From NCBI GenBank assembly GCA_016934955.1, contig JAFGRY010000031.1, positions 70,805 through 134,804 on the forward strand: DNA of 64,000 bases, read 5' to 3'. The notes beneath the pieces are model-generated. The model made no database searches, had not been told where the DNA came from, and saw only the letters and a program-made list of their open reading frames with translations. The stretch comes from a bacterium. GTDB taxonomy: Bacteria; Zhuqueibacterota; QNDG01; JAGLOF01. Made by a program: the position numbers and the translations under genes. Of this stretch, positions 448 to 13,344 are shown in pieces. The first letter of the stretch is position 1. Each line of letters starts with the position of its first letter.

Positions 448-463
448 TGGCACACTCTTCGCT
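448..463 (+). promoter_or_regulatory. Sigma-54 (-24/-12) type promoter candidate
   Basis: TGGCAC-actct-TCGCT has one mismatch to the consensus TGGCAC-N5-TTGCW. It sits 49 nt upstream of the receiver-gene ATG at 512 and just downstream of an EBP gene. Confidence 0.5.
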
Positions 464-511: not shown

Positions 512-946
512 ATGACGATCTACCAGACATTGCAGTCACTGCAGACGCTGCTCATCGATGACGACGAATGGATACGAAATGCGATGAGCATCGTCTTTGA
601 GAATGAGGGGTGTCCCTTTACTGCTGTTGAAACCGCTGAAGAGGCACTGGTATGCCTGAGACGGACCGCATATGACATTATTATCTGTGATTATCGCCTT
701 CCGGGTATGGACGGTCTGCAATTTTTTCAGCGCATCGGCGCCTCCTGCCCCGGCACAGTAAAGGTCCTGATCACCGCTTATGGCAGTGCGGAACTCTATG
801 AGACCGCCCTGACGGCAGGTATTCATGAAATTATCGAGAAACCGTTCAGCACCACCATCATCGAGGAAGCGCTGCAGCGGCTGCTCTCCCGCTCCGGACC
901 CGCACCTCACCCTATTAACGAAAAAGGAGACATTGCCGGAACATGA
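512..946 (+). CDS. Stand-alone response regulator receiver (CheY-like) protein
   Basis: Receiver motifs are present: 'LLIDDDE', 'IIICDYRLPGMDG', 'VLITAYG', 'EKPF'. I prefer the ATG at 512 (GGAG about 10 nt upstream) over the TTG at 464, which would lie upstream of the predicted sigma-54 transcription start. Confidence 0.85.
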   Translation: MTIYQTLQSLQTLLIDDDEWIRNAMSIVFENEGCPFTAVETAEEALVCLRRTAYDIIICDYRLPGMDGLQFFQRIGASCPGTVKVLITAYGSAELYETALTAGIHEIIEKPFSTTIIEEALQRLLSRSGPAPHPINEKGDIAGT

Positions 947-1007: not shown

Positions 1008-2294
1008 ATGAATCAAAAGGCTTACAACCCGTTCGACACGGCAAAGGCGCAGTTTGACAAGGTCGCCGAAATGCTGGAACTCGACAACGGGACCCGCGCG
1101 CTCCTGCGCAATACAATGAAAGAATACCATTTCAATATTCCGGTCCGCATGGATGACGGAACCGTCACGGTATTCCGCGGTTTCCGCGTGGTGCACAATG
1201 ACGCCCGGGGTCCGGCAAAAGGCGGTATTCGTTTTCACCCCCAGGAAACAATCGACACGGTTCGCGCCCTTTCGATGTGGATGACCTGGAAATGTGCGGT
1301 GGTCGACATTCCTCTGGGCGGTGCCAAAGGAGGGGTCATCTGTGATCCCCACCATCTCAGCAGCCGTGAGCAGGAGCAGATCTGCCGCGGCTGGATGCGC
1401 CAGCTTTCCCGGGATGTCGGTCCGCTGCAGGATGTACCGGCACCGGACGTCATGACAAATTCGCAGCACATGCTCTGGATGCTCGATGAATATGAAACAC
1501 TTCGCAATGGACGCTACCCGGGGGTTATCACCGGCAAACCGGTGGGCATGGGCGGATCACTGGGCAGAACCGAGGCCACGGGATACGGCGTCATGTACAC
1601 GGTGAGGGAGGCCCTGAAAGAGATGAATATCCGGCCCGAAGATACCACCGCCTCATTCCAGGGCTTCGGCAACGTCTCACAGTACGCCATTCGCCTCTAT
1701 CAGCAGATGGGCGGAACGGCCGTCGCGGCTTCCTGCTGGGACCAGAACGACCAACGGTCCTACACGTTCCGCAAATCCGGCGGCATCGACATGGAAGAGC
1801 TCATGCCGATCACCGACAAATTCGGTGCCATTGACCGGAAGAAGGCGGAAAAACTCGGGTATGAGATTCTCGACGGGGGTGAATGGATCACCCAGGATGT
1901 CGACATTCTGGTTCCGGCGGCGCTTGAAAATGAAATCAACGCCGAGACGGTGACCAGTATAAAGGACAGTGTAAAAATAATCGCCGAGGGTGCGAACGGT
2001 CCCACAACGATCGAAGCCGACAAGGTGCTGCACGAACGGGGCATCTTTGTCATTCCCGATTTTCTGGCGAACGCCGGAGGCGTGACCTGCAGTTATTTCG
2101 AGCAGGTGCAGTGCAACATGAATTACTACTGGGAAAAGGACGAAGTGCTGGGCAAACTGGACACGAAAATGACCGCGGCATTCATCGCCGTCAGCGAACT
2201 TGCCAAGCAGAAGAATCTCTATATGCGTGATGCCGCCTATGTGATTGCCATTGACAGAGTGGCTCAGGCATGTAAAAACCGTGGCTGGGCGTAA
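1008..2294 (+). CDS. gdhA: Glutamate dehydrogenase (Glu/Leu/Phe/Val dehydrogenase family)
   Basis: 'GPAKGGIRFHP', 'KCAVVDIPLGGAKGG' and 'GFGNVSQY' are catalytic-Lys and Rossmann motifs typical of hexameric GDH. ATG at 1008 is preceded by GGAGGG (995-1000). The 825 start would overlap the receiver gene. Confidence 0.95.
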   Translation: MNQKAYNPFDTAKAQFDKVAEMLELDNGTRALLRNTMKEYHFNIPVRMDDGTVTVFRGFRVVHNDARGPAKGGIRFHPQETIDTVRALSMWMTWKCAVVDIPLGGAKGGVICDPHHLSSREQEQICRGWMRQLSRDVGPLQDVPAPDVMTNSQHMLWMLDEYETLRNGRYPGVITGKPVGMGGSLGRTEATGYGVMYTVREALKEMNIRPEDTTASFQGFGNVSQYAIRLYQQMGGTAVAASCWDQNDQRSYTFRKSGGIDMEELMPITDKFGAIDRKKAEKLGYEILDGGEWITQDVDILVPAALENEINAETVTSIKDSVKIIAEGANGPTTIEADKVLHERGIFVIPDFLANAGGVTCSYFEQVQCNMNYYWEKDEVLGKLDTKMTAAFIAVSELAKQKNLYMRDAAYVIAIDRVAQACKNRGWA

Positions 2295-2410: not shown

Positions 2411-4144
2411 ATGGGAGCACATGCTGGTATTCCCCCGTTTATCCGCAAAGAATTTACCGGGCAGGAAGCGGTTACCATGATCGGCAGCGGCGACATCGGA
2501 GGAAAGGCATCGGGGCTGCTGTCACTCGCTGCCGCCGTTGCCGGCAGTGCCGTCCCGGCTCAGTTTGCGGGAGCGGTAATCGATATACCCCGATTTACCG
2601 TCATCGCCACCGATTTCTTTGATCAATTCATGGCGGAAAACACCCTCTCCCCGTTCACCCGTGACGATCTGCCCGATGAACGGATCGCCCACCATTTTCA
2701 GCTGGCAGACCTGCCGGCTAACCTTGCCGGTGATCTCTGGGCGCTGACGCTGAACACGCATGTACCGCTGGCGGTCCGGTCATCGAGCCTTCTTGAGGAC
2801 AGCCTGAAACAACCGTTTGCCGGTATCTATGCGACGAAAATGATCCCCAACAATCAGCCCGATGCCGAAACGAGATTCGCCCGTTTGACGGAAGCGATCA
2901 AATTTGTATATGCCTCGACCTTTTTCAAAAACGCCCGTAACTACCGGCGGGCAACAGGGAGCGGCGTCAGGGATGAAAAAATGGCCGTGATCATTCAGGA
3001 AGTGGCCGGATTACCCCGGCACATGCGGTTTTATCCCGATATTTCCGGAGTTATCCGGACATACAATCCATACCCGTTCGGCAGTGCCGACCCGGAAAGC
3101 GGGATTGTCACCCTCGCCCTCGGCCTGGGCAAGACCATCGTCGACGGAGGCGTATCCTGGTCATTTTCTCCTGACTATCCGGCAGCCCCTCCCCCCTGCG
3201 GTTCGACAACCGAACTGCTCAAACAGACGCAAACATCTTTCTGGGCCGTGAACATGGCAAAATCCCCCGGAGCCGATCCTCTCAGGGAAACTGAATTCCT
3301 TCTCCATCTGGGATTGCGGGACGCGGAATATGACAATGTGCTGCCGCTCCTGGCGTCAACCTACGATCCGGCATCCGACACCGTCTATATCGGGACCGGC
3401 AGAGCCGGCCCGCGCATCCTCAATTTCGGACCGCTGCTGCAGCTCAACGACCTGCCGTTCACCGGTATCATCTCCGCCGTCTCGCACACCTGTCGAACCC
3501 TCGCCGGCGGCCATGTGGAAATCGAGTTCGCGGCCACTATCAACAAGCAGGAATCCCGGCCGCTCAGATTCAGCCTGCTGCAGATGCGAAAGACGGCGAT
3601 TCCCGCCGATTCGGTCAATTATGAGATCTTCGACACAGCTGGAGCGGCGCTGATAGTCTCTGAGCGGATACTGGGCAACGGCGTGAGAGATAACATTCGG
3701 GACATCGTGTTCGTTCGGCCGGACACGTTCGATTTCAGCCGTTCCCGGGAAGCGGCCAGGGAGATCGCCCTGCTGAACGATCGCCTGGTCAATGAAAACC
3801 GGCCCTATATTCTGATCGGCTTCGGCCGCTGGGGCAGCTCTGATCCCTGGCTGGGAATTCCGGTGAACTGGAGCCAGATATCGGGTGCATCGGTAATCGT
3901 GGAATGCGACCACCCGGAGCGGTCCATCGATTTCAGTCAGGGGTCACACTTTTTTCATAATGTTTCCAATCTAAATATTTTGTATTTTTCAGTGCGGCCC
4001 GGTATATCCGGACGCATAGACTGGGACTGGCTGATGCACCAGCTGCCCTGCCACTCGTCTCCGCTGGTACAGCATATTCGTCTGGGAACACCGCTGCGGA
4101 CCGCCGCATCATTCAGGCAGAGAAAGGGAGTCGTTGTCGTATGA
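2411..4144 (+). CDS. PEP/pyruvate-binding (PPDK_N ATP-grasp) domain protein, paralog A; no swivel-His domain seen
   Basis: Motifs 'GGKASGLL', 'VRSSSLLEDS..FAGIYATKMIPNN', 'EKMAVIIQEV', 'EIEFAA...LLQMRK', then a C-terminal 'GFGRWGSSDPWLGIPVNW...SQGSHFFHN'. ATG at 2411 has an AGAAAGG upstream. The alternative GTG at 2330 sits inside the hairpin. Confidence 0.8.
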   Translation: MGAHAGIPPFIRKEFTGQEAVTMIGSGDIGGKASGLLSLAAAVAGSAVPAQFAGAVIDIPRFTVIATDFFDQFMAENTLSPFTRDDLPDERIAHHFQLADLPANLAGDLWALTLNTHVPLAVRSSSLLEDSLKQPFAGIYATKMIPNNQPDAETRFARLTEAIKFVYASTFFKNARNYRRATGSGVRDEKMAVIIQEVAGLPRHMRFYPDISGVIRTYNPYPFGSADPESGIVTLALGLGKTIVDGGVSWSFSPDYPAAPPPCGSTTELLKQTQTSFWAVNMAKSPGADPLRETEFLLHLGLRDAEYDNVLPLLASTYDPASDTVYIGTGRAGPRILNFGPLLQLNDLPFTGIISAVSHTCRTLAGGHVEIEFAATINKQESRPLRFSLLQMRKTAIPADSVNYEIFDTAGAALIVSERILGNGVRDNIRDIVFVRPDTFDFSRSREAAREIALLNDRLVNENRPYILIGFGRWGSSDPWLGIPVNWSQISGASVIVECDHPERSIDFSQGSHFFHNVSNLNILYFSVRPGISGRIDWDWLMHQLPCHSSPLVQHIRLGTPLRTAASFRQRKGVVVV

Positions 4145-7100
4145 GTATCAAACAATCGGAAATGGATGATCTGCTCGACAGCCTGCAGGAACGGGCCAAG
4201 GAGCTTAACTGCTTTTACCAGCTGGAAGAAGTGCTCATCCGCCATGACCTGGAACTGCCCGAACTGTTCCGTCATATCATTGCCATCATACCTCCCGGCT
4301 GGCAGCATCCGAATATCTGTCAGGCCCGCATCATCTATGAGGACGCCGCCTATGAACCGGCCGGTTTCAAAACGCCGGTGGCGGTGCTCAGCGCCGACAT
4401 CACCATTCAGGAAGAAGTGAAAGGCAGGGTCGAGGTTTCCTATACCGAATCGGTTCCCGCCGGCAAAGACGGCTTTTTTCTCAAGGAGGAGAAACGGCTG
4501 ATCTCCACCATAGCCGACCGGATCGCCGGGACCATTCTCTACCGGCAGCTAAGCGGCGGAACCGGTATCGCCGCTGAGAAACAGAAGGAGCACCCGCTTC
4601 GGGATGATACCGAATGGGCCGCCATCATGGACATGCTGCTGAAATCGGACAAGAATCTCTTTATCCATATCTGCAGAAAAATGCTCCACTATCTGTACTG
4701 GAACGGTATTGAAGAGGCTGACACGCTGCTCAAACAGTTCGAGGTCAAGACAACAAAGGACGAACTGGAGGACTGCAACAGACCTTCGAGAAAAAGGACC
4801 ATGCTCCATCTTATCGATCTGAGCAAGGAGGTACTGAAAGTAGCCCAGGAGTCCTTTGACAGTGACCGCATTCTGAGAAATATTCAGAAATGGATCCAGG
4901 AGGACAAATCACGCTTCCTCATTCGGGCGATCGATGACCCGAACGCATCGATCTCTGAAATTATCGATGCGATTTCACGCTATCACACTATTGTGCAGGA
5001 AGGCTTCGAAATAGCACCGGCCATGGAGAAGGGACTGAGAGTCTCCCTTATCCGCCGTTTTTTCTCCGACCAGCTCGAATTCATCAATATTGCCAAACAG
5101 TACATCGACATTCATGACTACTATTACATCATCAAGGATCTGATCTTCAGCCCCAGAAGCCACGGGAGTCTCGGCGGGAAAAGCGCGGGGCTCTTTCTCG
5201 CCTCGCAGATCGTCAAAAAACACGCATCCGCGCATCCGGTCCTGCGGGACATCAGAACACCGAAAACATGGTACATCACATCAGACACCATGATCAACTT
5301 CCTCCACTACAACAACCTGGAACAGGTTATTGAACAGAAATACAAGGATATGGATGAAATTATCATCGAGTATCACAACATCATCCAGATATTCAAGAAC
5401 TCGCCCTTTCCACCGGAAATCCTTCGCCGGCTCTCCGTGCTCGTCGATGATATCGGCGAGATCCCCATTATCGTTCGCAGCTCGAGCCTGCTGGAGGATC
5501 GTCTCGGTGCCGCATTTTCGGGTAAATACAAAAGCCTCTTCCTTCCGAATCAGGGCAGCCGGGAGCAGCGTCTTGACGCCCTGACGGATGCGATTGCGGA
5601 GATCTACGCGTCCACATTCGGGCCGGATCCCATCGAATACCGCAAAGAGAAGGGGCTCATCGATTTTTTCGAAGAAATGGGCGTGATGATCCAGGAAGTT
5701 GTGGGAAAACAGGTCGGTGACTATTTCTTCCCCGCCTTCGCCGGCGTGGCCTTCAGCAACAATGATTTCCGCTGGTCGCCCCGCATAAAAAGAGAGGACG
5801 GACTTCTGCGCATGGTTCCCGGGCTGGGAACGCGGGCGGTGGACCGCCTGTCCGACGACTATCCCGTTCTCGTCTCGCCGGGCTGTCCCGAACTGAAAGT
5901 CTCGATCACACCCGATGAAGTGATCCGGTACTCGCCCAAATGCATCGATGTCATCAATCTGAAAACGCATACATTTGAGACGGTCGAAGTGCCGCAGCTG
6001 CTGAGGGAGCAGGGAGACAGCTATCCGCTGATCAGTAAAATCATTTCCGCGGTAAAAGACAACCACGTCACCGGTTCACTCTCTTCGCTCAATATTGACT
6101 TCAGCAGTGACGATCTGGTCGTGACATTCGACGGCATCATCACCAAAACACCCCTGGTCAAGCAGATATTCACGCTCCTGCAGCTGCTGAAACGGGAGTA
6201 CAGAACACCGGTTGATATCGAATTCGCCCATGACGGCGACCATCTCTATCTTCTCCAGTGCCGGCCCCAGTCACATTCGGGTGATCTCTCCCCCACGCCG
6301 ATACCCAGAGACATCCCCGCTGACAAAATGCTCTTCAGCGCCCAACGATACGTTGCGAACGGTACGGTGACGAACGTCACTCACATCGTCTATGTCGATC
6401 CGGAAGCGTACAGCCGTGCTGCAAACGAGGATGAGCTGAAGAGAGTGGGCCGTGCCGTCAGCCGGCTGAACCAGCTCCTTCCAAAACGGCAGTTCATCCT
6501 CATGGGACCGGGACGCTGGGGCAGCAGAGGTGACATCAAGCTGGGGGTGAGCGTCACCTATTCCGATATCAGCAATACGGCGGCCTTGATCGAAATCGCA
6601 AAAAAGACCGGCAATTTCACACCCGATCTTTCGTTCGGAACTCACTTTTTTCAGGATCTGGTCGAATCGTCGATACGCTACCTTCCGCTCTACCCGGATG
6701 ATGAACAGATCGTATTCAACGAAGCGTTCCTCCTCAAAAGCCGGAATCTTCTCTCGGAACTGATTCCCGAGTTCACTGATCTGGAGCAGACGATCCGGGT
6801 GATCGATGTGCCCGGCCAGACCGATGGCCGCGTCCTGAACATACTGATGAACGCCGACCTTGACGAAGCGGTGGCGCTATTCGCTGAACCCGGCAGGATA
6901 TACGCCCGGACACATGAAAAGATGACCAGCATCACCGACATCAGCGCCCCGGACGAATTCTGGAAATGGCGGTACCACATGGCGGAAACGATCGCCCGTC
7001 ATCTCGATGTTGAGCGGTTCGGGGTCCAGGGGTGTTATCTGTTCGGCAGCACGAAAAACGCCACGGCCGGCCCGGCCAGCGATATCGATCTGCTCATCCA

Positions 7101-7329
7101 CTTTCGGGGAACACCGCAGCAGGAACACGATCTTGTCAACTGGCTGGAAGGGTGGAGCCTGACTCTGGCCGAAATGAACTATCTGAAGACGGGATATCGA
7201 ACGGACGGCCTCCTGGATGTTCACATCATTACCGATGATGACATCAGGAACAAGACGAGCTACGCGGTAAAAATCGGCGCGGTGACCGACGCCGCGAAGG
7301 CGCTGCCGCTTACCCGGGCGGAAGCATGA
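4141..7329 (+). CDS. Multidomain PPDK_N protein, paralog B: N-terminal sensor-like region + PPDK_N ATP-grasp + shared C-module + C-terminal Pol-beta-type nucleotidyltransferase domain
   Basis: 'KELNCFYQLEEVL...GFFLKEEKRLISTIADRI' at the N-terminus; 'GGKSAGLFL', 'VRSSSLLEDRLGAAFSGKYKSLFLPN', 'VDIEFAHDGDHLYLLQCRPQ'; 'GPGRWGSRGD...SFGTHFFQDL'; C-terminal 'YLFGSTKNATAGPASDIDLLIHF' (NTase G-S...D-x-D). ATGA overlap with paralog A (4141-4144). Confidence 0.8.
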   Translation: MSIKQSEMDDLLDSLQERAKELNCFYQLEEVLIRHDLELPELFRHIIAIIPPGWQHPNICQARIIYEDAAYEPAGFKTPVAVLSADITIQEEVKGRVEVSYTESVPAGKDGFFLKEEKRLISTIADRIAGTILYRQLSGGTGIAAEKQKEHPLRDDTEWAAIMDMLLKSDKNLFIHICRKMLHYLYWNGIEEADTLLKQFEVKTTKDELEDCNRPSRKRTMLHLIDLSKEVLKVAQESFDSDRILRNIQKWIQEDKSRFLIRAIDDPNASISEIIDAISRYHTIVQEGFEIAPAMEKGLRVSLIRRFFSDQLEFINIAKQYIDIHDYYYIIKDLIFSPRSHGSLGGKSAGLFLASQIVKKHASAHPVLRDIRTPKTWYITSDTMINFLHYNNLEQVIEQKYKDMDEIIIEYHNIIQIFKNSPFPPEILRRLSVLVDDIGEIPIIVRSSSLLEDRLGAAFSGKYKSLFLPNQGSREQRLDALTDAIAEIYASTFGPDPIEYRKEKGLIDFFEEMGVMIQEVVGKQVGDYFFPAFAGVAFSNNDFRWSPRIKREDGLLRMVPGLGTRAVDRLSDDYPVLVSPGCPELKVSITPDEVIRYSPKCIDVINLKTHTFETVEVPQLLREQGDSYPLISKIISAVKDNHVTGSLSSLNIDFSSDDLVVTFDGIITKTPLVKQIFTLLQLLKREYRTPVDIEFAHDGDHLYLLQCRPQSHSGDLSPTPIPRDIPADKMLFSAQRYVANGTVTNVTHIVYVDPEAYSRAANEDELKRVGRAVSRLNQLLPKRQFILMGPGRWGSRGDIKLGVSVTYSDISNTAALIEIAKKTGNFTPDLSFGTHFFQDLVESSIRYLPLYPDDEQIVFNEAFLLKSRNLLSELIPEFTDLEQTIRVIDVPGQTDGRVLNILMNADLDEAVALFAEPGRIYARTHEKMTSITDISAPDEFWKWRYHMAETIARHLDVERFGVQGCYLFGSTKNATAGPASDIDLLIHFRGTPQQEHDLVNWLEGWSLTLAEMNYLKTGYRTDGLLDVHIITDDDIRNKTSYAVKIGAVTDAAKALPLTRAEA

Positions 7330-8188
7330 CGCGCGCCGCTTTCTCCGGTTCGCGGGGATCGAAACGGACGAGGGCAAGGTCAGGCCCCTCGTGAGCGGCC
7401 GAGAAGAGACAGGTGCCGTTTATCCGGTCCTGCCAGCTGCCCGTTATTCGCGCCGATTCATGGACATGCCCGTGCATGGTCACCAGGGGATGGCGGTTCT
7501 CGATAAACCGCTTTACGGCGATGCTTCCGACATGCACGTCCAGCGGTACGTAATCGACCATTTTCCCGTCAAGGGCGGCCCTGTCCAGTTTTGTCTGGTA
7601 GGGCGGCGCATGAAAAAGGAAAAGCGAGCGTGACAGATCCCTCCCGGCCGCGAGATGCTCAAGATCCTCGCTGATCGTCGTATATTCAAGCCGGGACACC
7701 GGCACCGGAACGGTCAGCGATCCTTCAAAGGGTGCCGTACACCCCGGATCGGTATACCGGGAAACATCGTACCGCTCCCAATCCTTCAGGCGAAAGGGGG
7801 TCGGCGGCACATTGGCGTAACCGTAAATGTCGAATCCGCGCCAGGAAACCCGCCGGTTGTGAACATAGGTCCAGAGTCCGGATGTGGCGACGTCCAGCAC
7901 CGAGGCCTCTTCAATCCGCGCGTCATCATTACCCAGAATTAAAAACACATCAGGATACTCATCCTCCAGGTCACGCCGCAGCCGGCTGAAGCCCTCCGCG
8001 AGGCAGGTATGAATGAAATCACGGTGCGACGCCTTCAGGGTGTCGGCGAAAAAGGCGGTCCCCCCCGGCAGCAGATCACCTCCCAGAAAGAGTGCAGCCG
8101 GCCGTTCCTTGCGGACAGCGGCGAACAGGGTCCTGTACAGGGCCATGTTTCCATGCAGATCGCTGACGAAAAAAACCTCGTTTTTCAT
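7310..8188 (-). CDS. Metallophosphoesterase (calcineurin-like)
   Basis: Ordered motifs 'VSDLHGN', 'GGDLL', 'GNDD', 'FHAPP', 'GHVHE'. The 3' end overlaps the 3' end of paralog B by 20 nt (convergent). Confidence 0.8.
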   Translation of the reverse strand: MKNEVFFVSDLHGNMALYRTLFAAVRKERPAALFLGGDLLPGGTAFFADTLKASHRDFIHTCLAEGFSRLRRDLEDEYPDVFLILGNDDARIEEASVLDVATSGLWTYVHNRRVSWRGFDIYGYANVPPTPFRLKDWERYDVSRYTDPGCTAPFEGSLTVPVPVSRLEYTTISEDLEHLAAGRDLSRSLFLFHAPPYQTKLDRAALDGKMVDYVPLDVHVGSIAVKRFIENRHPLVTMHGHVHESARITGSWQDRINGTCLFSAAHEGPDLALVRFDPREPEKAARVMLPPG

Positions 8189-8381: not shown

Positions 8382-11354
8382 ATGAAAAAAATCGACGCCT
8401 TCTCTTCAGAAAACATCGAATTGTACGACGCTCACTTCCAGCAGTTTCAGAACCTGATGAGATTCCGCATTCGGGACGTGCTCATCGTCTCCAGTCTCTA
8501 TGATTTCCACGTCTTCGAAGAGGATGGACGGATTTACGAACTGCTGCGGAGCGAATACCAGGGCCTGAACCTGAGCCATACACCCGAGCTCACCCATATC
8601 AGCAGCGGCCACGAAGCGCTGCGGCTCATCTGCGACAACACCCAGTACGACCTGATCATCACGACGCTGCATATCGGTGACATGACACCGGGCGAGTTCG
8701 TGCGCATGCTGAGAAAATCGAAAATCGACACGCCCATTATCATGCTCGCATTTGACAACCGCGAGCTCGCCGACATGATCGCCCACGGCGAAGACAAGTA
8801 CTATGACCAGGTATTCATCTGGCAGGGCAATTACCGTCTCATTCTCGCCATCATCAAATTCCTGGAGGATCACATCAATGTCGCCCACGACACCGAGGTG
8901 CTGGGCGTGCAGTCGATCATTCTCGTTGAAGACAACATCAGGCACTATTCAACGCTTCTCCCCCTCATCTATATCGAGATCATCAACCAGACCCACCGGC
9001 TGATCAGGGAGGGCGTGAACCAGTCCCATAAAAATCTCCGCCAGCGGGCGAGGCCGAAAATCCTTCTCTGCACCACCTATGAAGAGGCGGTGGCGGTCTA
9101 TACCCGGTATCACGCAACCGTGCTCGGCATTATTTCGGACGTGGAATTCAGCCGCAACGGCGTTCCGGACAGGGAAGCGGGATTTCTGCTCGCCGGAGAA
9201 GTGAGGGAAAAACACCGGGATATCCCGATCCTTTTTCAGTCGTCCGTCAGCGAGAACAGAACCCGGGCGAGGGAGATGGGGTGCAGTTTTACCGGTAAAG
9301 ACTCGGACGACCTCGCGAAGACACTGCGGGAATTCATGCGCACCAGTCTCGGGTTCGGTGACTTCGTTTTCCGCACTCCCGATGGGAAAACGATCGACAC
9401 CGCCCAGGATCTCCATTCCATGGAGAAGAAACTAAAACACGTCCCTTTGGAAAGCATCAAATTCCATGCGGAACGAAACCATTTTTCGAACTGGCTCAAG
9501 GCCAGGACCGAATTCTGGCTGGCCAACAAGCTGCGGCCCCGCCGGACGTCCGATTTCGACAGTGTTCAGGATCTCAGGGACTATCTCATCGAATCGCTGA
9601 AAAATTACCGGCGGATACAGCAGCGCGGGCGCATCACTGACTTCAACCCGGAACTCTTCGACCCGTCCTACAGCCTTTCCCGCTACGGAGGCGGCTCCCT
9701 CGGCGGCAAGGCCCGCGGTCTCGGGTTCATCAACACCCTGATCCACAATTACGGCATCACGAAAAAATATCCGGGGGTGCGCATACACGTACCGGCGGCG
9801 CTGATCATCGCCACCGATGTCTTCGACGAATTCATGGATATGAACGGACTGCGCGCATTCGTGCTGCAGCATGAAGACAACAGCGAAATCGACGAGGCCT
9901 TCCGCAGCGCCGACCGCTATCCGCCGGGCCTCATCACCGCCCTGAAGGACTTTCTGAAGATTGTCAGCCGGCCCCTCGCCGTGCGTTCATCGGGCCTGCT
10001 GGAAGATTCGCATGTCCACCCCTTTGCCGGCGTGTATGAGACATTCATGCTCCCCAACAACCACCCCGACCCCGATGTCCGCCTCTCCCAGCTGCTGGAA
10101 CGCATAAAGGGCGTGTACGCCTCCGCCTTCTATCGCGTTTCCAAGGATTACATGAAAGCGACCACGTTCCGCCTGGAAGAGGAAAAAATGGCGGTTATCG
10201 TGCAGCTGCTCACGGGATCGGAAAGAAACGGAAAATTCTACCCCATTGTCTCGGGCACGGCGAATTCCTATAACTTCTATCCCGTCTACCCCCAGGAAAG
10301 CAAGGACGGTATTGCCTCGATCGCCCTCGGCCTGGGAACAACCGTGGTCGACGGCGGCCGCACGGTGAGATTCTCCCCTGCCTATCCGCACCACCTGCTT
10401 CAGTTCAGCAGCCCCAAAATGGCGCTGGAAAACAGCCAGCATGATTTTGTCGCGCTCTCCATGACGAACGATACAACCGATGAACTCCACCTTACCCGCT
10501 CCTACCCCGTTGCCGAAGCGGAAAAAGACGATGTGCTTCATTTTGTCGCCTCAACCTACTCACCGGAAAACGATGCCGTCTATGACGGCATATCGCGCTC
10601 GGGTCCCAGGATCATCAGTTTCGCGAATATCCTGAAGAATGATATCTTTCCCCTGGCAGAGATCATCAGGGAACTTCTGAGTATCGGCACCCGCAGCATG
10701 GGCACGCCGGTGGACATCGAATTCGCCGCGGACCTCGGCGGTCCGCGGGACAAACCGCGGCCGTTCAGTCTGCTTCAGATACGGCCCATGGTGCTTTCCC
10801 GGGAATCGGAGAAAATCCATATCACTCCTGCGGAAAAAAAACGTATCATCTGCCGAAGCGAACAGGTACTGGGGAACGGCGTAATCAACACGCTCGAGGA
10901 CATCGTGCTGGTTGACCGGGAAACATACGAGCGGTCCCGAAGCATCGAGGTGGCCGGGGAGGTGAGCCGGTTCAACGCCGCGCTGCTGGAACAGAAACGG
11001 CACTACCTGCTTATCGGTGTCGGCCGCTGGGGCTCCATGGATCCCTGGCTGGGCATCCCCGTCCGCTGGAGCATGATCTCCGGAGCCAGGGTTATTGTGG
11101 AGGCGGGATTCAGGGATTTTGAAGTGGAGCCGTCACAGGGAACCCATTTCCTGGAGAATCTCAATTCCTTCTCGATCGGCTATTTCACGCTCGACAACCG
11201 GGACGAACACGCGTTTCTGGACTGGGAATGGCTGAACGCCCTCCCCGCCATCGAACGAAAAACATATACACGCCACATCAGGCTCGACAGACCGCTTTCC
11301 ATCAGAATGAGCGGCAGACAGCGCCAGGGTGTCATTCTCAGACCGAAGGAATGA
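8382..11354 (+). CDS. PPDK_N protein, paralog C, with two N-terminal receiver-like domains (first degenerate)
   Basis: The first receiver-like region 'VLIVSSLYD...DLIITTLHIGDM' lacks the acidic pocket and acceptor Asp. The second, 'IILVEDN...LGIISDVEF...FQSS...TGK', looks competent. Then 'GGKARGLGF', 'VRSSGLLEDSHVHPFAGVYETFMLPNN', 'VDIEFAAD...LLQIRP', 'GVGRWGSMDPWLGIPVRW...SQGTHFLEN'. AAGGAA lies upstream of the ATG. Confidence 0.8.
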   Translation: MKKIDAFSSENIELYDAHFQQFQNLMRFRIRDVLIVSSLYDFHVFEEDGRIYELLRSEYQGLNLSHTPELTHISSGHEALRLICDNTQYDLIITTLHIGDMTPGEFVRMLRKSKIDTPIIMLAFDNRELADMIAHGEDKYYDQVFIWQGNYRLILAIIKFLEDHINVAHDTEVLGVQSIILVEDNIRHYSTLLPLIYIEIINQTHRLIREGVNQSHKNLRQRARPKILLCTTYEEAVAVYTRYHATVLGIISDVEFSRNGVPDREAGFLLAGEVREKHRDIPILFQSSVSENRTRAREMGCSFTGKDSDDLAKTLREFMRTSLGFGDFVFRTPDGKTIDTAQDLHSMEKKLKHVPLESIKFHAERNHFSNWLKARTEFWLANKLRPRRTSDFDSVQDLRDYLIESLKNYRRIQQRGRITDFNPELFDPSYSLSRYGGGSLGGKARGLGFINTLIHNYGITKKYPGVRIHVPAALIIATDVFDEFMDMNGLRAFVLQHEDNSEIDEAFRSADRYPPGLITALKDFLKIVSRPLAVRSSGLLEDSHVHPFAGVYETFMLPNNHPDPDVRLSQLLERIKGVYASAFYRVSKDYMKATTFRLEEEKMAVIVQLLTGSERNGKFYPIVSGTANSYNFYPVYPQESKDGIASIALGLGTTVVDGGRTVRFSPAYPHHLLQFSSPKMALENSQHDFVALSMTNDTTDELHLTRSYPVAEAEKDDVLHFVASTYSPENDAVYDGISRSGPRIISFANILKNDIFPLAEIIRELLSIGTRSMGTPVDIEFAADLGGPRDKPRPFSLLQIRPMVLSRESEKIHITPAEKKRIICRSEQVLGNGVINTLEDIVLVDRETYERSRSIEVAGEVSRFNAALLEQKRHYLLIGVGRWGSMDPWLGIPVRWSMISGARVIVEAGFRDFEVEPSQGTHFLENLNSFSIGYFTLDNRDEHAFLDWEWLNALPAIERKTYTRHIRLDRPLSIRMSGRQRQGVILRPKE

Positions 11355-12523
11355 TCCGGTCCCGCGCTGATTCCGGTCACCCGGCCATGACACTGACGGA
11401 AACGAAGGCGAGAACCGTTCTGCGGACCTACAGGACCCTGGACTCCTGGTTCATCAGCCGCTACGCCATGAATCTCTATCGAGGCTGCGCCCATAACTGC
11501 GCCTACTGCGACGGGCGGTATGAAGGGTACTATCTTCCCGGAATCTTCGGAGAGGACGTTACCGTCAAAATCAATGCCGCCGATGTTCTGAGAAGAGAAC
11601 TGGACCCGAGCCGCAGACGAACCCCGCTCACTCCCTGCTATCTCATGCTCGGAGGCGGCGTGGGCGACAGCTATCAGCCGGCCGAACGGACCCGCGGACT
11701 CACCCGGCAGGTCCTCGAGATCATGCTCGAGTACGGGCTTCCGGTGCATCTGCTCACAAAATCGGTCCTGGCCGCCCGGGACATGGATCTGCTGAGCCGC
11801 ATCAGCCGCTCGGCCGGGGTGCTGGTCACGGTCAGTTTCTCAACCCTGGACTCGGGCCTCAGCGCACTTTTCGAGCCGGGAGCATCCCCGCCCGAGGAGC
11901 GGATCGACCTTCTTGACCGGCTGAAAACAGCCTCCATTCCCTGCGGCATGGCGCTCATGCCGGTTATCCCCTTTCTCACCGATACGCCGGCCCACATCGA
12001 GACGGCGGTCCGGACCGCCGCGCACATGCGTCTCGATTACGTGCTCTTCTCCGGGATGACCCTGAAACCGGGCCGTCAGATGGAGCACTTTCTGAACCTG
12101 CTCGGCCGCCACTTTCCCGGGAAGATTGAAGAATATTACGCGATCTATCACGGCACCCGCAGGGGGGAAGCGTGCAGCGCGTACAGTGATCATATTCACT
12201 CGCTGTTCCGGGACGCCGTGACCCGCTACCGCATGCCCCCGCGCATACCCGCGCATCTGTTCAGCAGAGTGCTCACCCTCACCGACCTTGCCGCGGTCAT
12301 GCTCGATCAGATACATTACCTCTGCAGGCTCCACAACCGGCCCTCCTCCTTCGGCGCGGCGGCAAGGGCCGTCGCCGGTCTCCGGGAACCGCTGCCGACC
12401 CTGGCCGGACGGCTGCGAAGCATTAACGGTATCGGTCCCGTCACGGAAAAAGTGCTGTGTGAGATTCTGGAAAGCCGCACCAGCAGCTACTATCGCCGCC
12501 TGCTTTCCGCCCGTTTTTCCTGA
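11351..12523 (+). CDS. Radical SAM protein, SplB/COG1533-like, with C-terminal helix-hairpin-helix-like motif
   Basis: 'YRGCAHNCAYCDGRY' is a CX3CX2C cluster in the context typical of SplB-like radical SAM enzymes. C-terminal 'INGIGPVTEKVL'. ATG at 11351 overlaps the paralog C stop (ATGA); the alternative ATG is 11387. Confidence 0.75.
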   Translation: MIRSRADSGHPAMTLTETKARTVLRTYRTLDSWFISRYAMNLYRGCAHNCAYCDGRYEGYYLPGIFGEDVTVKINAADVLRRELDPSRRRTPLTPCYLMLGGGVGDSYQPAERTRGLTRQVLEIMLEYGLPVHLLTKSVLAARDMDLLSRISRSAGVLVTVSFSTLDSGLSALFEPGASPPEERIDLLDRLKTASIPCGMALMPVIPFLTDTPAHIETAVRTAAHMRLDYVLFSGMTLKPGRQMEHFLNLLGRHFPGKIEEYYAIYHGTRRGEACSAYSDHIHSLFRDAVTRYRMPPRIPAHLFSRVLTLTDLAAVMLDQIHYLCRLHNRPSSFGAAARAVAGLREPLPTLAGRLRSINGIGPVTEKVLCEILESRTSSYYRRLLSARFS

Positions 12524-12612: not shown

Positions 12613-13344
12613 ATGAAATCGAGCTATTTCATTTCCGACATTCACCTGGGGACCGACACGGAGTATGCGTCACGGACCCGCCTGCGCCTGCTGCTGGATT
12701 TCTTTGCCGCGATCGAGAAGGATGCGGAGCATCTGTTCATTGTCGGTGATCTGTTCGATTTCTGGTTCGAGTATAAAAGCGTCATGCCCAAAGGACATTT
12801 TGATCTGCTCTACGCCCTGAAAAAAATGCGGGATGCGGGTACCGCCATTACCCTTCTTCGGGGAAACCACGATTTCTGGATCGCCGGTTTTTTTGAGGAT
12901 GAGCTGGGCATTCCTGTACACGACGATTTTCTCGATATCAGGCTGGGCGGCAAACGGTTCTACATCTCCCACGGCGATGGACTCGCCAAAGACGACAAAG
13001 GATATCGTTTTCTGAAAAAAATACTGCGCAATCCATTCAACATCCGGCTGTTCTCCCTGCTGCACCCTGATATTGGACACGCCCTTGCCACGTTTTCCTC
13101 CCGGCTGAGCCGTGATTACAGCCCCATACTGGACGACAGGGAGGACTATATGCAGTTCGCGAGGGAGATGTTCGGGCGGGACTATGACTGCGTGGTTCTG
13201 GGGCATACCCACGCCCCTGTGCTGCTCAGAGAGGCACATCATGTATACCTGAACACCGGAGACTGGATGAGCAGGTTCACCTACGGTAAATTCACCGACG
13301 GAAGACTTACCCTGGAGCACTGGCCGCTCCCGGAACAGCGGTAA
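12613..13344 (+). CDS. lpxH: UDP-2,3-diacylglucosamine hydrolase
   Basis: 'YFISDIHLG', 'GDLFDFW', 'GNHDFW', 'HGD', 'GHTH'; about 240 aa, typical LpxH layout. Confidence 0.8.
   Translation: MKSSYFISDIHLGTDTEYASRTRLRLLLDFFAAIEKDAEHLFIVGDLFDFWFEYKSVMPKGHFDLLYALKKMRDAGTAITLLRGNHDFWIAGFFEDELGIPVHDDFLDIRLGGKRFYISHGDGLAKDDKGYRFLKKILRNPFNIRLFSLLHPDIGHALATFSSRLSRDYSPILDDREDYMQFAREMFGRDYDCVVLGHTHAPVLLREAHHVYLNTGDWMSRFTYGKFTDGRLTLEHWPLPEQR

Follow-up and report, generated by a model that had tools for sequence, protein, structure and literature searches.

Organisation of the locus and of protein B

The window analysed here is a stretch of 64,000 nucleotides of contig JAFGRY010000031.1. Near its beginning, the gene of an NtrC-type enhancer-binding protein (Pfam HTH_8) ends at position 303, ahead of the following features.

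448..463, +, sigma-54-type promoter-like element TGGCAC-N5-TCGCT, ahead of the operon (sequence reading)
513..946, +, single-domain response regulator, first gene of the operon (ATG at 513; Pfam Response_reg, E 2.9e-22)
1008..2294, +, dedicated glutamate dehydrogenase (GDH) of the B-linked clade, 428 aa (Pfam ELFV_dehydrog domains)
2411..4144, +, paralog A, PPDK_N and shared module without a regulatory head (Pfam PPDK_N, E 4e-29)
4141..7329, +, protein B, an open reading frame of 1062 aa
4141..4560, +, B aa 1-140, predicted GAF-like sensor domain (AlphaFold2 and Foldseek)
4603..5160, +, B aa 155-340, all-helical linker (predicted secondary structure)
5167..6288, +, B aa 343-716, PPDK_N ATP-grasp (Pfam PF01326, E 1.9e-58)
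6313..6915, +, B aa 725-925, module common to A, B and C (module HMM and alignments)
6916..7326, +, B aa 926-1062, minimal Pol-beta nucleotidyltransferase, NTase (Pfam, Foldseek and profile matches)
7310..8188, -, convergent metallophosphoesterase (Pfam Metallophos, E 7e-8), its 3' end overlapping B by 20 nt
8382..11354, +, paralog C, receiver domain(s), PPDK_N and shared module (Pfam Response_reg and PPDK_N; module 58 bits)

The true start of the GDH gene is at 1008, after a GGAGGG Shine-Dalgarno sequence, and not at 825. Paralog A is translationally coupled to B, its TGA stop codon overlapping the ATG of B (ATGA), and the two are fused in homologues of ~1630 aa.

The five-part fusion of protein B is confirmed as one real chain. 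A sequence-only reading of this DNA had considered that two separate genes might have been joined artificially by the assembly or through a frameshift, a possibility that we regard as negligible since about 7,900 full-length homologues (~55% identity) exist, the same architecture recurring in thousands of independent assemblies, and since uninterrupted full-length matches without internal stops are present in 80 genome loci. The family is spread over at least 591 species and more than 15 phyla; its hosts are nearly all uncultivated. A Pfam scan of relatives of unusual length disclosed no additional domains. The family is large; full-text searches found no studied member and no paper on the B architecture or its link to GDH. 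The four domains assigned to B by the sequence-only reading, namely a sensor-type head, PPDK_N, a shared module and an NTase, all hold, and the strings that it quoted lie where it had placed them: KELNCFYQLEEVL at aa 20-32, QARIIYED at 61-68, GRVEVSY at 95-101, GFFLKEEKRLISTIADRI at 111-128, GPGRWGS at 789-795, SFGTHFFQDLVE at 831-842 and GCYLFGSTKNATAGPASDIDLLIHF at 965-989.

Domains of protein B

Conservation counts for B residues refer to an alignment of 109 full-length homologues. The N-terminus of B is predicted to be a sensor-type domain with a GAF-like fold. In the AlphaFold2 model, whose pLDDT is 80-92 across the sheet (aa 40-130), the head displays the helix, antiparallel sheet and helix of the GAF fold, and its best Foldseek matches are GAF domains (3cit with a TM-score of 0.63, then 4g3v, 4g3k, 8jrc and 3ci6; Nlh1/Nlh2, NifA and PtsP are among them), with modest scores (E 9e-3 to 9e-2, probability ~1.0, TM 0.5-0.63). 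At the sequence level, no Pfam family, GAF included, matched aa 1-160 even at an E-value of 10. Residue C24 of the head is near-invariant (108/109). The only other copy of the sensor domain in this genome is that of the histidine kinase encoded directly upstream of the operon (122 bits), which is in line with the resemblance to sensor kinases first noticed from the sequence; it is likewise carried by the histidine kinase of an HK-EBP-GDH-B locus in a Chitinispirillaceae MAG. In a search for the sensor domain in a large protein collection, the 120 matches listed were all B-family proteins. The helical linker that follows the head, for which Pfam gave no family match when the piece was searched in isolation, is also found in sensor-less relatives of ~770 aa.

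The PPDK_N core, expected near aa 340-715, is delimited by Pfam at 343-716. Its nucleotide-site residues K347, R446, E452, D453, D692, E694, Q706 and R708 are each conserved in 109/109 homologues. Its sequence matches in the PDB are the ATP-grasp domains of rifampin phosphotransferase and PEP synthase, and NCBIfam gave sub-threshold PEP-synthase-like matches over the ATP-grasp only, far below the curated cut-offs. By analogy with PEP synthase, PPDK and rifampin phosphotransferase (EC 2.7.9.x), whose ATP-grasp is homologous and whose nucleotide-site residues are all kept, it is likely that this domain transfers phosphate from ATP. In contrast to these dikinases, B is devoid of the swivel (GGxTSH), the PEP/pyruvate TIM barrel and the rifampin-binding domain, and possesses instead an unclassified module of 200 aa, a sensor head and an NTase tail. 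No Pfam match to the phospho-His swivel (PEP-utilizers, PF00391) was obtained in A, B or C, the only two such domains of the genome being those of PtsI and PPDK on other contigs, and neither Pfam nor NCBIfam detected a second-substrate domain (PEP-utilizers_C TIM barrel or rifampin-binding) beyond the ATP-grasp. A PPDK_N ATP-grasp can function without a swivel in the same chain, as in HpeHI, CreHI and PpsAB (phenylphosphate synthase), in which an adjacent partner bears the swivel His and the substrate site (PMC12167813). These systems belong to aromatic catabolism, whereas the context of B is that of GDH, and no swivel or substrate partner adjoins B, whose neighbours are a response regulator, the GDH, the metallophosphoesterase and a radical SAM enzyme.

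The GRWGS module noted in the earlier reading lies within a region common to the three paralogs: an HMM of the B module gives 50 bits with A and 58 bits with C, and N777, GxGRWG (789-794), D798, G802, E818 and S831, G833, H835 and F836 (SxGxH835F) are among the residues invariant across A, B and C. The isolated module has no Pfam match and no sequence relative in the PDB, the profile search giving chance matches to longin domains (E 0.01), and no PDB structure matching its fold was present among the top 50 Foldseek matches. The order of its secondary-structure elements and its G-[ST]-H motif had looked suggestive of a swivel. The possibility of a diverged swivel phospho-His domain was not supported by an hhalign comparison with 27 PtsI/PPDK swivel domains (probability 0.14), and no swivel-bearing structure was present among the top 50 Foldseek matches. 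Conservation and a predicted position at the N-terminus of a helix make H835 a candidate phosphate carrier. Since the ATP-grasp of B lacks a domain needed by every characterised relative, the module should be either a phosphate carrier or a substrate site of a novel type.

At aa 958-1000 the C-terminal domain matches NTP_transf_2, scoring 28.1 bits when all of B is searched and 31.7 bits when the C-terminal piece is searched by itself, against a gathering score of 21; the Polbeta and MTPAP-like models match more weakly. The model of aa 717-1062 (pLDDT 87.7) contains a Pol-beta palm fold, with Foldseek probabilities of 0.97-1.0 to 6xz0, 2rff, 8xeh and 7bxo and E-values of only 4e-3 to 3e-2; AAD(9), MNT, MntA and AadA are among the fold matches, and 2rff, 1wot and KNTase among the profile matches. 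The completeness of the acidic triad, a point left for verification by the sequence-only reading, is now established: the domain has the hG[GS] motif (G969-S970), the D-x-D motif (D981-I-D983) and the third carboxylate (D1026), G969, S970, D981 and D1026 being conserved in 109/109 homologues and D983 in 106/109. As judged by its residues, the NTase is catalytically complete. It shares its fold and its G-S, D-x-D and third-Asp signature with the antitoxin MntA, the aminoglycoside enzymes ANT/AadA and Sulfolobus 2RFF; unlike the MNT proteins, it sits at the end of an enzyme of 920 aa, has no HEPN partner and is optional in the family. Minimal NTases can AMPylate a protein tyrosine, as MntA shows (see also the titles of PDB entries 7bxo and 7ae9). 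Many B orthologues of the same order are without the NTase, keep everything else including the gene context, and remain linked to GDH, which weakens the suggestion that B carries out two chemistries on one substrate or nucleotidylylates itself.

A dedicated glutamate dehydrogenase

B and a dedicated GDH make up a conserved unit of two genes, with B as its core, and B is co-inherited with one GDH clade. In 59 of 65 B loci from more than 15 phyla, a co-directional GDH gene lies directly upstream, and in one phylum sample the linked clade is present in all 22 genomes with a sensor-bearing B and in none of the 33 without, counts that are not phylogenetically independent. The gap between GDH and the next gene of the cluster (A if present, otherwise B) is typically ~100 nt. 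Identity among the linked GDHs is 69-93% within the phylum and ~70-76% between phyla, whereas in same-order genomes without B it is 48% at the most. The closest solved relative of the GDH of this operon is 1EUZ (E 1.6e-118), and the linked enzyme is a canonical, apparently active GDH. The strict GDH linkage, which the sequence-only reading did not contain, is the strongest clue to the system.

The linked GDHs have in common 18 invariant positions that are specific to the clade, and an insert of six residues with the signature WDQxDQxxY, in which W244 is invariant and Y252 is found in 97%; it reads CWDQNDQRSY (aa 243-252) in this operon. The insert (S/C-W-D-Q-x-D-Q/K-x-x-Y) replaces the conserved D-S-x-G-G turn after the second Rossmann strand, a turn that in GDH folds contacts the adenosine ribose of NAD(P).

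Around this unit, the composition of the cluster varies. A metallophosphoesterase gene lies downstream of B in 32 of the 65 loci and is convergent with it in 30, and its co-occurrence with A has an odds ratio of 20 (p 3e-5; the counts are not phylogenetically independent). Both were seen only with NTase-bearing B, neither adjoining the eight NTase-less orthologues, a small sample from one phylum. When the neighbourhoods of 80 loci were clustered, the only conserved neighbours were GDH, the PPDK_N paralogs and the phosphoesterase; glutamate-synthase-like genes adjoin some B loci.

Proposed function and comparison with known systems

We propose, as our best guess and with a probability of about 0.45, that B is a ligand-gated, ATP-dependent modifier or regulator of its GDH. 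The arrangement of PPDK_N and module behind a GAF-like head in B, or behind receiver domains in C, was counted in favour of a regulatory character, as was the sensor domain shared with the upstream histidine kinase here and with the Chitinispirillaceae locus. More tentatively, and with considerable doubt about the scheme as a whole, the cluster could be a covalent GDH switch composed of a sensor-gated, swivel-less ATP-grasp, a phosphate relay through the His-bearing domain and, in its extended form, an NTase/phosphoesterase pair acting as writer and eraser. A metabolite, plausibly 2-oxoglutarate, glutamine or an amino acid, would bind the sensor head and gate the ATP-grasp, which would pass a phosphate of ATP through the shared module, with H835 as the candidate carrier; the phosphate would be accepted by the partner GDH or by a GDH-bound ligand, and GDH activity would be switched in this way. 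Since the sensor domain is also borne by the histidine kinase driving the sigma-54 activator of the operon, expression and activity would both be under the control of a single signal. The extended form would have a second layer, made up of the NTase, paralog A and the convergent metallophosphoesterase, in which a protein hydroxyl would be nucleotidylylated by the NTase and the group taken off again by the phosphoesterase.

A metabolic partnership would account for the operon linkage and the co-inheritance just as well as regulation would. It can be envisaged that B, A and C act in glutamate/2-oxoglutarate metabolism, as dikinases of small molecules or as ATP-dependent ligases, with the module as the substrate-binding and phosphate-carrying part, GDH as the supplier or remover of substrate and the sensor as a means of tuning the flux. 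The PPDK_N enzymes characterised so far, which include PEP synthase, PPDK, rifampin phosphotransferase and HpeHI (PMC12167813), all phosphorylate either small molecules or glucans, and the apparently active, canonical nature of the GDH and the glutamate-synthase-like genes beside some loci agree with such a role. We nevertheless consider it unlikely, as neither a swivel nor a known substrate-binding domain was found in B, two to three paralogs with receiver or GAF-like heads resemble signalling outputs, and a metabolic role does not account for the obligatory presence of a distinct GDH clade bearing a surface insert of its own.

Located at the end of the second dinucleotide-fold strand, that insert could instead set coenzyme specificity. 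In another reading, the system might make, modify or recycle the nucleotide cofactor of the dedicated GDH, leaving the GDH protein itself unmodified. The two nucleotide-handling domains of B and the phosphoesterase of the cluster would suit this idea, which is deduced from the insert position only and appears to us quite improbable: NTase-less systems keep the same insert (7/7), and no cofactor-biosynthesis genes are conserved near B loci. Even less probable, and hardly credible in our view, is a toxin-antitoxin (MNT/HEPN-type) or anti-phage element marked by the C-terminal NTase, with an incidental GDH linkage. The last 100 aa do have MNT antitoxins among their best matches, in fold and in sequence, and PADLOC gave weak, partial matches to the candidate system PDC-S09; these span 36-41 residues only and do not correspond to a known defence system. 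Pfam detected no HEPN domain in B and the flanking genes, from the window start to 18872, the locus is chromosomal, vertically stable, housekeeping-like and very highly conserved across phyla, and the NTase can be absent with the other parts retained.

GDH stands at the junction of carbon and nitrogen metabolism and carries a large share of the flux in protein-fermenting anaerobes. The B family has been kept at ~55% identity between phyla and is inherited strictly together with its own GDH clade; if the proposed regulation of GDH by B is correct, it would constitute a previously unrecognised covalent GDH switch, widespread in uncultivated anaerobes. Its logic would be similar, by analogy only, to the control of glutamine synthetase by GlnE/GlnD and to PtsP (GAF-EI) of the nitrogen PTS, in that a multidomain enzyme which senses metabolites and transfers nucleotides or phosphate would serve one central enzyme of nitrogen metabolism. 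The fold matches of the B head include the GAF domains of PtsP and NifA. The NTase of B has no sequence relationship to those of GlnE and GlnD, the Pfam matches of B to NTases being NTP_transf_2, Polbeta and MTPAP-like only and NCBIfam giving no match to GlnE or GlnD, and its target would be GDH and not glutamine synthetase. The phosphate donor would be ATP through the ATP-grasp and not PEP. Assembled from unrelated parts, the system would do for GDH what the GlnE/GlnD cascade does for glutamine synthetase.

Domain architecture and spread of protein B

The open reading frame of protein B encodes 1062 residues, with the following segments:

4141-7329 (+): protein B
B aa 1-140: sensor domain, predicted as helix, 4-5-strand sheet, helix (pLDDT 80-92)
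B aa 155-340: linker, all helical, no match
B aa 343-716: PPDK_N ATP-grasp domain, every nucleotide-site residue kept in 109/109 sequences
B aa 725-925: shared module, common to B and its paralogs A and C
B aa 926-1062: minimal Pol-beta nucleotidyltransferase (NTase), supported by fold and profile

The sequence-only reading had proposed a PPDK_N core and a C-terminal NTase. Every string that it quoted occurs where it was placed, and both domains are borne out by Pfam: PPDK_N covers aa 343-716 (E 1.9e-58), and NTP_transf_2 matches aa 958-1000, with G969-S970, D981-x-D983 and D1026 conserved. The latter match reaches 28 bits with whole B and 31.7 bits with the isolated C-terminus (gathering score 21), the Polbeta and MTPAP-like models being weaker; fold matches of the NTase are AAD(9), MNT, MntA and AadA, and its profile matches 2rff, 1wot and KNTase. 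The sensor domain, to which no Pfam model matches, has GAF domains as its best PDB fold matches (3cit, TM 0.63; Aquifex Nlh1/Nlh2, NifA, PtsP, CodY), and its C24 is kept in 108/109 sequences. Since NCBIfam gives sub-threshold PEP-synthase-like matches alone, over the ATP-grasp, no curated family covers B. B and paralog A overlap at ATGA, start codon of B and TGA of A, with a GAAAGGGAG ribosome-binding site ahead of the start; at its stop, B overlaps the gene of the convergent metallophosphoesterase.

About 7,900 homologues emerged from a word-indexed search, of which the best 120 come from many phyla, are mostly about 1060 aa long (55-79% identity) and cover 98-100% of B; that the fusion is an artefact, a possibility raised by the sequence-only reading, is thus very unlikely. 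When cluster representatives at 50% identity were searched exhaustively with HMMER, 10,697 matched, and a scan that took one genome for each species found B encoded in at least 591 species. The best 80 of these genomes are all metagenome-assembled (MAGs) and include Acidobacteriota, Ignavibacteria/Bacteroidota, Calditrichota, Zixibacteria, Planctomycetota, Spirochaetota, Bacillota, Chloroflexota, Gemmatimonadota, Myxococcota, Fermentibacteria and Eisenbacteria. Proteins of about 1630 aa turn out to be A fused to B, and one homologue of 1202 aa (P0039) carries the N-terminal sensor domain doubled in tandem, which confirms it as an independent module. Database names are limited to 'PEP/pyruvate-binding domain-containing' or 'nucleotidyltransferase domain-containing' protein, and full-text literature searches found no paper on the architecture of B or its link to glutamate dehydrogenase (GDH).

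A distinct glutamate dehydrogenase clade beside B

1008-2294 (+): GDH, 428 aa, canonical hexamer-type, best solved relative 1EUZ
1734-1763 (GDH aa 243-252): 6-residue insert, [SC]-W-D-Q-x-D-[QK]-x-x-Y

The longest GDH frame (825-2294) begins within the response-regulator gene and homologues align only from its residue ~62; the ATG at 1008, after a GGAGGG site, is almost certainly the real start. A GDH gene lies directly upstream on the same strand in 59 of the 65 loci with enough upstream sequence, typically about 100 nt from the next cluster gene (A where present, otherwise B). When all neighbours in 80 loci were clustered without supervision, conservation was confined to GDH, the PPDK_N paralogs and a metallophosphoesterase. 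The linked GDHs, ~70-76% identical between phyla, form their own clade; their insert, which replaces the turn D-S-x-G-G that follows strand 2 of the dinucleotide (Rossmann) fold, and 18 invariant positions (among them H115, C126, H154, W244, Y252, W293 and C361) are absent from the GDHs of genomes without B. In a phylogenetic profile of the linked GDH, 22/22 genomes with a sensor-bearing B have one of 69-93% identity, versus 0/33 others (Fisher p 8e-16, kinship ignored), the best GDH being at most 48% identical in 20 same-phylum genomes without B and 49-55% identical in 13 genomes with only sensor-less relatives of B. It is very probable that B is functionally coupled to its GDH.

Core, optional parts and signal input

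Many orthologues of B within the window's own order stop at about aa 917, without the NTase. In this small sample (eight loci, seven reaching upstream of B), the special GDH lies directly upstream in 7/7, W244 and Y252 are kept in all seven, and an adjacent A or phosphoesterase occurs in 0/8; in two of the eight, an A/C-like paralog lies farther off, at a few kb. The core of the system is therefore GDH plus the sensor-PPDK_N-module unit, and NTase, A and phosphoesterase are an optional add-on set. Among 65 NTase-bearing loci, A is found in 43 and the phosphoesterase in 32 (30 convergent), and they go together (28/11/2/16, odds ratio 20, p 3e-5, kinship ignored). The sensor-less relatives (~770 aa, 42-46% identity) are not beside GDH.

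Several neighbourhoods differ in their flanking genes. Four NTase-less GDH-B loci (L113, L116, L117, L119) are flanked by glutamate-synthase-like genes, encoding a Glu_synthase domain protein, a 2Fe-2S/4Fe-4S protein and a GltD-like flavoprotein. Sensor-less relatives (L120-L123) adjoin a CHASE2-adenylate cyclase in two genomes and trpA in two others. A paralog-C-type gene (receiver, PPDK_N, module) near B in eight loci of other genomes (L037, L045, L048, L055, L056, L063, L067, L079) has beside it another GDH-like gene, a divergent one (32-38% identity). In the window, by contrast, a radical SAM gene follows C, and contig C19 carries the sole further GDH-like gene. Neither of the two genes following C is conserved beside B in other genomes:

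11228-12523: radical SAM gene, longest frame overlapping the end of paralog C
12613-13344: second metallophosphoesterase, after the radical SAM gene

Signal input may be shared with the genes upstream:

C52:67855-69720 (contig C52, ~1.1 kb upstream of the window start): histidine kinase, 621 aa; sensor domain, then PAS, HisKA, HATPase
7-303: tail, ending at 303, of an NtrC-type sigma-54 enhancer-binding protein that follows the kinase
448-463: sigma-54-like promoter, then response regulator, GDH, A and B in order

No protein of the source genome other than B and this kinase (122 bits) has the sensor domain, and sensor-bearing kinase, enhancer-binding protein, GDH and B follow one another likewise in a Chitinispirillaceae MAG; both kinases support the link that the sequence-only reading drew between this N-terminal motif and sensor kinases. 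As the domain is common to B and the upstream kinase, one ligand is suggested to control both transcription and B activity.

Possible roles of B and the shared module

How B and GDH are coupled is what we infer. We favour, at a probability of roughly 0.45, the proposal that B would modify or regulate GDH in an ATP-dependent manner, gated by a ligand, because the PPDK_N-plus-module unit stands behind signalling heads (GAF-like in B, receiver domains in C), because B must be accompanied by a separate GDH clade, one with its own surface insert, and because the optional NTase and phosphoesterase resemble a writer-eraser pair. That B works together with GDH as a dikinase or ligase of small molecules is a serious, if rather unlikely, rival. 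A role centred on the GDH cofactor is a slim possibility, opened by the position of the GDH insert, at the site that in GDH folds generally receives the adenosine ribose of NAD(P). It is very unlikely that B is a defence or toxin-antitoxin element.

The shared module has no Pfam match and no solved sequence relative; all 50 PDB fold matches listed map to the NTase and none to the module. With a module HMM made from B, A scores 50 bits and C 58 bits, and N777, GxGRWG (789-794), D798, G802, E818, S831, G833, H835 and F836 are invariant across the three classes. In the predicted model (pLDDT 87.7), a strand precedes GRWGS and H835 starts a helix. The idea of the module as a diverged phospho-His swivel domain found no support, hhalign giving a probability of 0.14 for its alignment against 27 swivel domains from PtsI and PPDK genes of the same phylum. 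In the source genome, PEP-utilizers domains occur solely in PtsI and PPDK, which lie on other contigs, and B is therefore without a swivel element. It differs in this from all characterised PPDK_N enzymes, which use one, the two-component dikinases HpeHI, CreHI and PpsAB included (PMC12167813).
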